Assembly (NCBI GenBank): GCA_965112155.1
Contig: OZ218100.1
Source: Podarcis liolepis
Taxonomy: Eukaryota
Direction: 5' to 3' (one strand)
Length of the DNA stretch: 64,000 nt
How positions within the stretch are numbered: the first letter of the stretch is position 1; each line of letters begins with the position of its first letter. The notes under the pieces were generated by a model that was given only the letters and a program-made list of their open reading frames with translations, was not told the origin of the DNA and made no database searches. Made by a program: the position numbers and the translations under genes. This document shows, one piece after another, positions 3,973 to 56,389 of the stretch.

Positions 3973-4809
3973 CAGTGTTTCCCAACCTTTTTTGGGCAAA
4001 GGCACACTTGTTTCATGAAAAAAATCTTGAGGCACACCACCATGCCAGATGGGGAAAGGTCACTTTTTACTTATGCAAATAAAAAATAAAAAAATAGTAA
4101 CAGCATAGAAGGTAATGGTTAGGCTAGCATCCCTCTTCCAAATATGCTAGGTTTTTATTTGCAGGGACTGTTCTACATGGGAAAGCATTCAGCACTGTCA
4201 TTCTCCCATCTGCAATCTGAATTGGTACTATTCTGGGTCAACTTACTCTGCTGCATGTGTAGATGAAAATGGCACCAAGTGTGGGGGAGGGGGCAGAACA
4301 GGTTTCAGATACAGGATATTAAGCATACACGTACTTCAGATTGAACTGGTTGCTTGCTTTGCAAGTTTTCATTTCCCAAATGACTGCCTTGGCAAGCGCA
4401 ATACCTACCAGGCTCAACGCCGGTCTCGCGCTGCCGCTTCCCGCGCTCTCAAGGACCCGGGAGGAGGAAGGCGTGAAGGGAATCCCGAAGGCGTGAAAAC
4501 CTCGCGCATGCGCAGGCCTTCCGCCTGCGACAGCCCAGTAGGCCGGCCGAAGCGAGCAGCAATGGGATGTGGGAGGGAGGGAGCTCGCCGCCCCGCGTGT
4601 GCCTATGTGGGGCACGTTACAGCCCCGTGACGTCAGCGCCACGCAGGCAGCCAGGCAGGCAGACGGCGAGAGCCCCGCGCTGGGCGGCCTCTCCTCGCCG
4701 CCGCCGCCCCGCCTCTCGCCGCCCGACTCGCCCGCCTCCCTCCCACGGCACACCAGGCAACGTCTTGCGGCACACTAGTGTGCCGCGGAACACTGGTTGG
4801 GAAACACTG
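3973..4809. mobile_element. Non-autonomous hAT (Charlie-like) DNA transposon with CpG-rich interior
   Basis: Perfect 15-bp TIRs cagtgtttcccaacc/ggttgggaaacactg; 8-bp TSD atctagag at 3965-3972 and 4810-4817. Confidence 0.92.
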
Positions 4810-15362: not shown

Positions 15363-17674
15363 TAAATTTAGTATTATCCAAGTCATAGCACTATAGGTTT
15401 TACCATTATATACATACCTCGTTCTTGTTTGATCTTTAAAGGAGTAAGTTGCAAGATTAAAAGATGCCTGATTCACTATATTAAAACAAATACTTCCAAA
15501 AATCATGGGCTTCCATTGGTTATATATGTATTGTAGGACCAAAAGGGACAACCTTTGATGTGCAAACATACTAGGATGTAAGCCTTACTGAACTCATTGG
15601 GACATACTTGTGACTGAACATGCTTAGATCTGTGTTGTAAATTTCTTTGTGGGCAGATAAGCCCATCATATCAGAAGTAGCCATTAATGCTATTCTACCC
15701 ATGCTTCGTCTTTATTTTTGCCATGAAGTGGCAAAAGAAATGAGAGCACAGGATCCCAGCCTGTCACCTTTCATGGCATCTTATAGGATCTACTCTACTT
15801 ATTAGAACTGGATCTAGTTTTAGCAATGAAAGTAACTATATTGGCCTCACTGAGCTAAACTGATCTGCAGAATCACATTGGAAGGGTTTCTCAGGAAGTA
15901 ATTCACAAACTATTAGAGAAGTCATTTCCACATCAAGAAAACTGCCCATTCTTCAGGTGGAGGAGAGATAGATGAGCCTATATAGCAGTGCAGATGCAAT
16001 CTCTCAGGAATGATAGCATATTAGAATTTTTGTAATGCATTCTAACTGCAGTAGAATGAAAATCCTAATTCATTGTACTTTTAAGTATCATGTTTACTCT
16101 CAAATAGTTAATATTCTTACATAAATAGGCTAGAGTTTAGCTGGGGAGGGAAACTGTTTGCTAAAATACTTTCCTTATACATATTCAGAGGAATTCATAA
16201 TTTTTTTTCACACAATTTCATTTTCTTCTTCCTAGAATAGAAAGATAACTGTATTCCCCTAATACTAGACCAAAAGACACCCACTCAATCACGAGCAAAT
16301 TCATTGCTCCATTTGCATTTTAATAGGAATGGCAAATGTGAAATTAATATAGAATGAAATAAGAAATTACAAACAACCATCTGTAGGTAGAAAACAGATT
16401 TAATATTTACTTATTAGCAGCCTTCTGAGTCAATATTTATTACAGCAAGTGGAAAAACGGCACTGAACTGTGACCATTTCCAATAAGTGTGGCTCTCTGG
16501 GCAGTGTTTTACATCGTCACATGTAATGTTTAATGTTTAAGAAATGTGGGTGGTGCTTCACAGTGTGGAAATGGTAACAAAATCTATGAAAGATCATGAC
16601 ATGCTTATCAGCATAGTAGGCATTGTCATGCTTCAAGTGTATTCAGGTCTCCAAGGTCTGACTTATAATGTAACTGATCAGACATTGAACTTGATATGGG
16701 AAAAGGTAAAACAACCCACCAATATTCTTGTTTACTTGCAGTTGTGAATGTCTAATGTTAAGGAACGAGTGAGGCCCTGAACAAAGTGGCGTAATACAGT
16801 GTGCACATGTTCAGGGTTTCAGCCACTCCACCACATACACACACCAGATTTTCATCCTCCTGCAGTCAATATGTTGCGTCCACTGAACATGTTTGGTCCT
16901 CAGCAGTCTGGTTTGAGAGGGTGTTGGTTTGAACACACTGCTGCCCAATCCCAATTCCATTGGGTTCCAGCACAGATTTCTGTGGGCAGCTCTAGGGACA
17001 TTTAAAAATGGCTTCTTAGCGTGAACCAGGAATGGCCTTCCCAGTCAAGCAGGTGGTTGTCTCTTTTCATCTATGTGTCTCATCCTTTGTCTTTCTCCAT
17101 GGCATTCCCTCTCCCACCTCGCCTTCAGTGCCACCATCTCAGTAGTTTCCAGTTCATTGGCACTGAGCAGACTTGGTCTTCATTGGGATATTTTGGGGTC
17201 ATTTCTGCCCTTTACAATTTATTTTGTGCTTACGTTTGTTGATTATATGCTCAGAAATAAGACATTCCTTCAGTAGTTCATTTTGAGCTGTGAACGTCCA
17301 ATGTCAAGTAATGCTTCTGAATTTAAAGGAGGGGTTGTGGCGACAAGGCACTTAGAAATGAATTCCTAAATGTATGTTGGTTTTCTTTTTCTTCAAATTA
17401 ATTCAGTCCTTTGAAACACTTTATTTCTGGGTATAAAATAAGTTTTGGAATAAAGGAGATTTTTTTGGGGGGGAGAGCTAATTGATGCTACCAGCTTATT
17501 TAATCTGGAAGAGAAATGAAACTGATGCAGTGTGCAGCTAATGGTTGTAGCACTGCTGGGGGTGCTACAACTACAATGTATAATGGTAGGTGAGAGGGGA
17601 GGCGACAAATTGTGGTGTCACACACGGTGCCAAGGTCCGCCACTGTGTAAGTCAGTGTTATTGGGATATGTCTG

Positions 17675-17765
17675 GTGGCATCCACATCTTGAGGATTGTC
17701 AATCAGTTCAGCAAGTGTTCCAAATAAAAGGTCATGTGTTGTGGAGTTTGCATACATGTACCCCA
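17675..17765 (-). pseudogene. MORC1/MORC2-family N-terminal (GHKL ATPase N-box) coding fragment insertion
   Basis: Translates [30 protein letters not shown] versus recalled MORC2 [30 protein letters not shown]; flanked by 10-bp direct repeats gatatgtctg (17665-17674, 17766-17775). Confidence 0.85.
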
Positions 17766-17983
17766 GATATGTCTGCAACTAACCAAAGAAGAATGCTGAT
17801 AAACCAGGTTTTCTTCCTTTTTTTCTGGACGTAATTTGTAGCTTCATGTTAATTATTATAACCACAATGAAACAAAGAAGATTCACACTTACATTCATTC
17901 AGATTAATGGATTTAATCATGGTTAATTATGTGTTGTTACATGCCTGTCATTCCTTTTTATTTAGCACCAAAGGTAGTCATGA

Positions 17984-18358
<375 letters not shown>

Positions 18359-18553: not shown

Positions 18554-19021
18554 TGTCAGATGCTGGGTGGTGGTTGCTTGTGAGTAACCAGGCAGGACTC
18601 TGACCTGTCTTTTACAGGTTTTATTGTGCAGACTATTTACAGTGCAGATACACAAAGTTCATGTCTGTCTGAGTCACTTGCAGAATCCGGGAGTGGCCCC
18701 TTCCGGCTTCTCCCCCAACATAAGAACTTAGACACCCCAAATCTCCGCCTCCCCTCCTTGTGTTTCACCCCTCTGTGCAAGCTGGGCAACAGAAGTGGAG
18801 TGTGTGCCTCCTGGCCAGCCAGGCTAGGTGAGGCGCTTGGGCTCTCAGCAGCATCTTCGAGCCCTCTCCTCGCTTGGCTGGCCCCTTCCCGCTCTTCCCC
18901 ACTGGAGGTGTGGCTTTTCCCCTCGCTGGAAGAGGAACTGCTCCTCAGAAGCGTAGGAGGCTCCCTGTATCCCAAGGGCATCCCTGCCTCCCTCCCCTGT
19001 TCCGATGGCAGTCCCTTGACA
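18554..19021 (-). mobile_element. Solo LTR
   Basis: Termini tgtca...tgaca; 5-bp TSD acatc (18549-18553, 19022-19026); minus-strand AATAAA at 18620-18625. Confidence 0.88.
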
Positions 19022-19395
19022 ACATCGAATAAGGCATTTACTTCAATCATAAACATTTCATTCTTGAAGGGAAGCAAGCTGTGCAGAGTAAGAAGCCACT
19101 GCTTCCATTCCGTTGTTCCCCAATACACTGAACCATTTCACTGATGACCGCAGCAGCATAGGAGTTGTTTCTGGCAGCGCTCATCCCATGCTACTGTGGC
19201 AACATGTGAAAGGCTGGAAATGTGGGTGGGATCTCTATCTCATTTTTTACCTAGTTGAGAAAGGGAGGGGAAAGGACTCACACAGCTGATCCTGTGCACA
19301 TGGTTTTGGCCTTTTAAACATTTCCAGAGTGACACAAAATAAAACCATTAGAAAGTGGCTCTTGAGCTGCTACAGTAATTCATCTTCATCAGTAG

Positions 19396-53276: not shown

Positions 53277-54436
53277 TATCATTAAGACTACATAAACACC
53301 AGTCTTTGAGCATGTGGATCTTTTGCATCTGCTTGGTGTATAGTAATGAGCCGAAGCAGGTTATTCCTCTCTACATTGTTTTGTTGGGAAAACAGAAGGG
53401 ATCCATTCTGTTCTGTCAAGGTTCTGGTGTGAATGCCCTCTTTGAACCAACTCAGTTTGGAGTATGCAAGGAAAGGACCTAGCATGGGCTGTTCTGGGAT
53501 GGTACCTTACTGGCAAATCACGGCTGTTTACCAAGAAAAGAAAGTGGGGAGGTGGTGTGGTGCAAATACAGCACAGAAGTGCCAGATTGGCTTCACTGCT
53601 CAGATTCCAGGTGTAATAGATTTTGGAAACATCCGTATAGGTGTGCAACTACTGTGAACAGAAGAAAAGTAATACATTTGACATCTCAGCTATACTTCTC
53701 CCCCCCCATCCCCTCATTCAGAGATGGTGAAAATCTTGAATGGCAACTTGCCTTTCCCAGAAAGCACAACCCAGGCATTCAGTCTTGTTGCCTAGAAGGC
53801 AGCAATGCCTATGCTGTACTCCCCAGACATGTATTTTTTCTGACAGGAGAAGCGTTGTCATTGCAGCAATCAGATCTGCAGAGACCTTGTATGCTTGGAT
53901 CCACTGGCTGGAATGAAGGTCTGACCCTTGCCTTGGGAGACTCTTTTACATATACTCCATGTCATTACCTCTCCCCAGCCTTGGGCATATTAAAATGAAG
54001 CCCTCTGCCACCTCACCCTTTCTTTCAAATTAAAGTCAAACCACAACTCCAGGCACAGTGCAGGCAAGTCTGATACCAGAGCTGGTCTTCAGGCAAATTC
54101 CTGCAACTCTTTTTGTACCTTCCCAGAATTATTCTGCTGGCTTCCAACTGAATAAGTGGATGCCACACAAAATGTAACTTCTTTGCATTTATATTTTCAA
54201 ATTCATAGATCTTATTCTAGTTTTATGGAGATTTTCATTATGCCAACAGCCAGGATTTCCACAATGTAATCATTATGTCAGGATATGTCTGTGCACCAAA
54301 AGATTTTTAGAATATTCCCTTACTGACAATACTTTCCAAATGTCAGTGCATGGAAGATTGTTGAATTATTGGCACTCACAATGAGAATCAGTAATGTACA
54401 AACAACAAGTTGCTTTAGAAAAAAACAACAACATAG

Positions 54437-55590: not shown

Positions 55591-56389
<799 letters not shown>

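Follow-up and report, generated by a model that had tools for sequence, protein, structure and literature searches.

The window, that is, the whole stretch of DNA analysed here, is 64 kb long, and it contains part of CSMD1. An exon at 18019-18221 is 99% identical to Varanus CSMD1, and its translation matches the CUB domain (E 3e-10). In the neighbouring intron, the minus strand of 17665-17775 can be translated without a stop into 37 residues, and these residues resemble MORC proteins. The features are as follows; exon numbers of MORC1 are those deduced here.

18019-18221, plus strand: CUB-domain exon of CSMD1, the host gene, with AG and GT borders; 243 bp downstream of the insert and on the opposite strand.
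17785-17787, minus strand: TTT preceding the upstream repeat copy (positions -10 to -12) and resembling the RTE-clade signature; a weak feature, as 8-10% of random sites have TTT.
17766-17775, minus strand: upstream copy of the direct repeat, which is a likely target-site duplication; the L17 codon of MORC1 begins with the last base of this copy.
17670-17766, minus strand: MORC1-derived segment of 97 bp (residues 17-48 plus one base), without a stop or frameshift and with at least 8 replacement changes.
17744-17766, minus strand: 23 nt predicted to be the end of MORC1 coding exon 1; gene models break at S24|T25, and a contig match ends at 17743.
17690-17743, minus strand: whole second coding exon of MORC1 (54 nt), predicted from breaks in gene models.
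17670-17689, minus strand: predicted start of the third coding exon of MORC1 (20 nt), where the copy stops; gene models break at R42.
17665-17674, minus strand: downstream copy of the direct repeat; as judged from protein residues, it opens with 5 bases that keep the MORC1 codon register (T47-R48-L49) and are a likely priming microhomology.
About 17530-17645, strand not assigned: multi-copy MITE-like repeat, separate from the insert; it starts 20 bp past the downstream repeat copy, and its left border is approximate.

Two identical copies of a 10-bp direct repeat, GATATGTCTG, bound the insert; they lie at 17665-17674 and 17766-17775 (spacing, 91 bp). An earlier, sequence-only reading of this DNA had reported the repeat, its spacing and the lack of a poly(A) tail. 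These points were borne out: the repeat is exact, and no poly(A) or A-run, which is expected of a classical processed pseudogene or a class 1 templated insertion, was found at the 3′ end of the insert. The same reading was right that the homology (threonine and arginine codons) runs into one repeat copy and that the insert lies antisense in an intron of CSMD1. The homology extends from 17766 to about 17670 (97 bp), overlapping the upstream repeat copy by 1 base and the downstream copy by about 5 bases. The copy ends at codon 48-49 of a 944-residue protein and is thus 3′-truncated. It should be mentioned that 10-base repeats 50-200 bp apart are common in the 64-kb window (33 pairs). Therefore, the repeat by itself means little, and its position at both ends of the insert is what counts. 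When a 97-bp segment was slid along both strands of the window, an exact repeat of at least 10 bases hugged both of its ends at 108 of the 127,520 placements outside the locus (8.5e-4, about 1 in 1,200). A third copy of the 10-mer, far off at 54282-54291, was taken as chance.

The MITE-like repeat next to the insert holds a 10-bp inverted repeat at 17544-17571. In a DNA sequencing run (X2), its depth was 300-370 as compared with 70, and several partial contigs fell at 17553-17632. An 85-residue open reading frame at the locus was rejected as a real frame, as it is a chance read-through into this neighbouring repeat. Six stop-to-stop frames of at least 150 codons, in the regions 18584-19144, 4151-4774, 53483-53998 and 55908-56387, gave no Pfam match above the cut-off. 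No Rfam family was found in the window.

The sequence-only reading had assigned the peptide to MORC1 or MORC2. The MORC homology was confirmed: in a PDB search, residues 4-35 of the translation matched residues 16-47 of human MORC2 (E 2e-8), and MORC3 and MORC4 were matched only at E 0.05-0.26. The peptide presumably belongs to the GHKL N-box, and a Pfam scan of its 37 residues gave no match. The sole homologue found with a 42-residue translation as query was the same locus in another assembly (1 of 5 candidates). In a protein search of the whole library, Tiliqua MORC1 showed the highest identity (69%) after the locus itself. We used the first 70 residues of this Tiliqua protein as a query and collected 95 MORC proteins. 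Over the 32 copied codons, the insert is identical to Podarcis muralis MORC1 at 24 positions, to Zootoca MORC1 at 23, to other squamate MORC1 at 20-22 and to MORC2 at 20; the MORC2 side of this comparison consists of five rows, which are nearly invariant over this span and come from outside the lacertids. At residue 21, lacertid MORC1 possesses tyrosine and nearly all other MORC1 and MORC2 rows possess histidine. The tyrosine of the insert at this residue was found in 3 of the 89 anchored rows, all of them lacertid MORC1. Because of these residue matches, this tyrosine and the base changes required (at least 8 from the insert to Podarcis MORC1 versus 13 to MORC2), the parent, judged by its protein sequence, is a lacertid-type MORC1 and not MORC2, and the window probably comes from a lacertid. 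Thus, of the earlier assignment to MORC1 or MORC2, only the former stands. It is very improbable that MORC2 was the parent, although the top PDB match is MORC2 and although the leucine at window codon 21 and the aspartate at codon 32 also agree with MORC2. The 9 PDB matches held no MORC1 chain that could compete, and five columns (L17, Y21, A22, D28 and I38) agree with Podarcis MORC1 and disagree with MORC2.

The copy had been described as looking spliced, and two indirect approaches bear this out. In the first, faulty MORC gene models were taken to break at exon borders. Among 99 MORC rows, 13 had a missing block or gap inside the copied span; one of these was merely divergent and was dropped. 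Of the remaining 12 broken models, 11 break at S24|T25 or R42. For example, just the 18 residues from S24|T25 to R42 are missing from an opossum model, and a kangaroo-rat model possesses 10 extra residues at R42. The 54-nt exon predicted in this way agrees with what we take to be the human exon map. Three MORC sequences break just past the copied span, which places a third junction at about residue 53-54 (a retained intron or a skipped exon). The second approach used run X2, in which a 285-nt contig aligns with the insert over 17695-17743 and nowhere else; 55 and 181 letters on its flanks stay outside the alignment. One end of this match lies exactly at the predicted junction. The other end is 5 bases short of the junction, at a place where the copy has two changed codons. 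Between contig and insert there are 7 differences in 49 positions (about 14%). The contig has the appearance expected of the parent exon with an intron on either side, and we presume from the span of the alignment, rather than from splice signals, that it is the MORC1 exon. The insert thus appears to join 23, 54 and 20 nt of three exons and was likely copied from spliced RNA; as it crosses two junctions, it would have passed through such RNA.

The sequence-only reading had proposed counting other copies as a check. In run X2, it proved to be single-copy, and it does not behave as a multi-copy transposon. Its depth in this run is accounted for by the contig that spans it (70.3) and the single 285-nt contig (42.1), and nothing further needs to be explained. 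No second processed copy was found in X2 at 80% identity or more, in contigs that can drop rare or filtered records, and tblastn found no other MORC piece in the 64-kb window.

A short, tailless insert of this kind has published counterparts. Noll et al. (2015; PMC5322556) described 2,402 human tailless retropseudogenes, including 5′-truncated copies of histone mRNA, with duplications of 8-35 nt and 2-18 nt of complementarity to the target site. In the passages of that paper cited here, green anole is the only non-mammalian vertebrate in which the class was found. Like these retropseudogenes, the insert is a 3′-truncated RNA copy without introns (the parent mRNA itself being deduced), exceeds 30 nt, carries no oligo(A) and is flanked by an exact repeat, whose 10 bp fall within the range of 8-35 nt. 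It differs from them in two respects. The cross-species screen, anole included, dealt with 5S rRNA and U2 according to the same passages, whereas the insert comes from spliced protein-coding mRNA. Moreover, the target site agrees with the tailless L1 consensus TT/WAAAAWW (PMC5322556) at only 5 of 9 positions and, with 2 A in its first 4 bases, is not A-rich. The sequence-only reading had called a 5′-end fragment without poly(A) atypical for a retrocopy. This structure was confirmed, but it is not unexplained, because it matches the published pattern of tailless retropseudogenes, which is reported from a lizard also (PMC5322556). Thus, the insert is a tailless, 5′-truncated, spliced retrocopy fragment of MORC1, and a known class explains it.

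Related cases are known from other templates. Doucet et al. (2015; PMC4476161) explained 3′-truncated snRNA pseudogenes by internal priming, in which the RNA pairs with the nicked target; their templates are snRNAs, in contrast to the spliced mRNA here. The anole genome has such 3′-truncated snRNA copies, and L1, L2 and RTE have all acted on U6 there (PMC4476161). The insert also resembles templated sequence insertion polymorphisms (PMC5110952), which are short insertions from distant loci, including spliced cDNA. As described in the cited part of that work, poly(A) and an L1 site mark class 1, and class 2 lacks a duplication, whereas the insert has a likely duplication and neither poly(A) nor an L1 site. 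The rodent retrogene Morc2b (PMC5785033) is likewise a germline-fixed copy of a MORC-family mRNA. Morc2b is full-length and essential, according to that report, whereas the insert is a decayed MORC1 piece of 32 codons. In our searches, we found no report on this locus in the literature on a MORC1 retrocopy in CSMD1 or on tailless mRNA copies in squamates, although the supplements of PMC5322556 could hold lizard mRNA cases.

From these data, we consider it probable that the insert is a decayed, single-copy MORC1 fragment made when a LINE reverse transcriptase primed internally, on about 5 matching bases, in spliced germline mRNA, and that the 10-bp repeat is a target-site duplication. The RNA origin is well supported; the priming, the duplication and the enzyme are what we infer. 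In this mechanism, an endonuclease nick in the intron would free a 3′ end, which could pair with about 5 bases of MORC1 mRNA at codons 47-49. Reverse transcription would then proceed for about 97 nt toward the 5′ end of the mRNA, and a match of 1 base at codon 17 would serve to join the product. A cut of the second strand 10 bp away, followed by fill-in, would create the duplication, and neutral decay would follow. Mouse Morc1, a transposon silencer, is specific to the male germline (PMC5785033), and such expression agrees with the copy being heritable. The first 5 bases of the downstream repeat are compatible with the T47-R48-L49 codons, as are 2% of random 5-mers, with the parent nucleotides being deduced from protein. 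Assuming a decay of 10-12% per copy, a perfect 10-bp duplication would survive with a chance of 8-12%; this is a mild point against reading the repeat as a duplication.

The candidate enzymes are L1, RTE or repair enzymes. L1 is the default from the literature. Because the target site is not that of L1, we do not call the insert L1-made. The site hints at RTE. In anole, RTE LINEs and their SINEs are reported to insert with about three T at -10 and a duplication of 10-12 bp (PMC6007223), as seen at the insert. In those insertions the duplications start with T or A, whereas C is the first base here; an RTE-like tail is also absent from the insert. Given that the duplication has 10 bp, that the site is not A-rich and that a T stretch lies at -10, a non-L1, nominally stringent LINE (RTE/BovB) might have primed internally on spliced mRNA through a 10-base hybrid with a 3-nt bulge; this is a tentative and rather doubtful reading. 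All 10 bases of the repeat are compatible with codons 47-51 if one such bulge is allowed, and 11% of random continuations pass the same comparison. L2 and RTE are stated, in the cited text of PMC4476161, to make only template-switch chimeras and no 3′-truncated copies. Therefore, L1 stays the default, and an origin through RTE would be the more novel one.

Two other routes from MORC1 mRNA to this structure have to be weighed against internal priming by a LINE enzyme. A staggered double-strand break may have been repaired with a cDNA or RNA patch, no LINE endonuclease taking part, as in class 2 insertions, with fill-in making the duplication. The absence of poly(A), the microhomology at both junctions and the dissimilarity of the site to the L1 consensus would all fit such repair, and spliced cDNA pieces are known templates of class 2 insertions (PMC5110952). 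However, class 2 is described in the cited sections of that paper as having no duplication and as having microdeletions, whereas a clean 10-bp repeat is present here at both ends. We regard this route as unlikely; the 10-bp duplication favours a LINE enzyme over RNA-templated break repair. The insert could also be what later deletions left of a longer, ordinary poly(A)-primed retrocopy, or it could have been copied as DNA from another processed pseudogene, with the repeat as a chance event or by-product. With this decay, a repeat that is still perfect is somewhat surprising, and a MORC1-like YTV is found in frame 15 bp beyond the downstream repeat copy. However, such a tripeptide match occurs at 2.7% of random sites, and the end of the adjacent MITE-like repeat overlaps the YTV. 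The putative extension of homology past the 3′ repeat (in-frame YTV and DL, minus strand, 17650-17630) was set aside for these reasons. Other MORC sequence was not seen in the 64 kb, nor was a second processed copy at 80% identity in X2; moreover, the placement of the repeat would be expected by chance at a frequency of only 8.5e-4. Trimming or DNA-level copying is thus quite improbable, and we prefer internal priming on spliced MORC1 mRNA.

After insertion, the copy seems to have changed freely. Its 8 replacement changes in 73 replacement sites (about 11%) affect residues that hardly vary among squamate MORC1 proteins. The middle exon shows 3 replacement differences and, by subtraction, 4 silent ones, a pattern that fits neutral change in the copy and silent change in the parent. 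The open frame was rejected as a sign of selection; it comprises only 32 codons with 8 replacement changes. No editing-like skew was evident in these 8 inferred changes, and the predicted RNA fold of the insert did not exceed that of shuffled sequences (z 0.63). The sequence-only reading had pointed out that CSMD1 transcription would yield RNA antisense to MORC mRNA. The geometry is real, CSMD1 is reported in mammalian gonads in the cited part of PMC6789153, and the insert appears on both haplotypes of X2 and under two organism labels. It might be supposed from these facts that the insert was kept because antisense RNA from the CSMD1 intron acts in germ cells to tune the transposon silencer MORC1. 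However, a role for such RNA is unsupported and in our view scarcely credible: the insert has only 97 bp, is about 14% diverged from the presumed parent exon (7 differences in 49), forms no fold beyond shuffles and has lost conserved residues. Because 8 replacement changes have accumulated at conserved residues at the rate expected without selection, the comparison of sequences argues for neutral decay rather than an antisense role. Probably, the insert is inert and does nothing. The fact that it was copied from the RNA of a transposon silencer is likely due to germline expression and not to function.

As a dead fragment, the single locus matters little. If primed as proposed, it indicates that spliced protein-coding mRNA can undergo internal priming in squamates, and it is a fossil record of MORC1 expression in the lacertid germline. 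The VGP retrocopy screen drops alignments shorter than 120 bp, as stated in the cited part of PMC13320880, and because of this discard, pieces like the insert are uncatalogued there. A genome-wide set of such pieces, if their sites carried a signature other than that of L1, would help to tell which LINE clades are the source of retrocopies in reptiles. Should the RTE reading be true, lizard genomes would hold a hidden class of tailless mRNA micro-retrocopies below 120 bp that current pipelines discard, and these would record both germline transcripts and a retroposition route thought to be closed to RTE.

The insert could also serve as a presence/absence marker. The stretch is present in 6 of the 21 listed sequencing runs, from three studies and under two organism labels. 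Two runs that might represent RNA, X13 and X18, yielded no contig over it, a result without bearing on expression or on the parent. A run with the other organism label (X1) carries the upstream junction of the insert as well; it covers 17726-17950 at a depth of 2.2 and may represent DNA or intron RNA. The spanning contig of X2 has no differences over 17506-17950, and X2 may be the window's own source rather than an independent one. Near the insert, X2 splits into two haplotypes of about 30 depth each. Both appear to carry the insert, and no joint that skips it (an empty allele) was seen in this run. X2 is heterozygous at 17412-17535, where 4 substitutions and a 2-base insertion separate the haplotypes, and it has one sequence across the insert.
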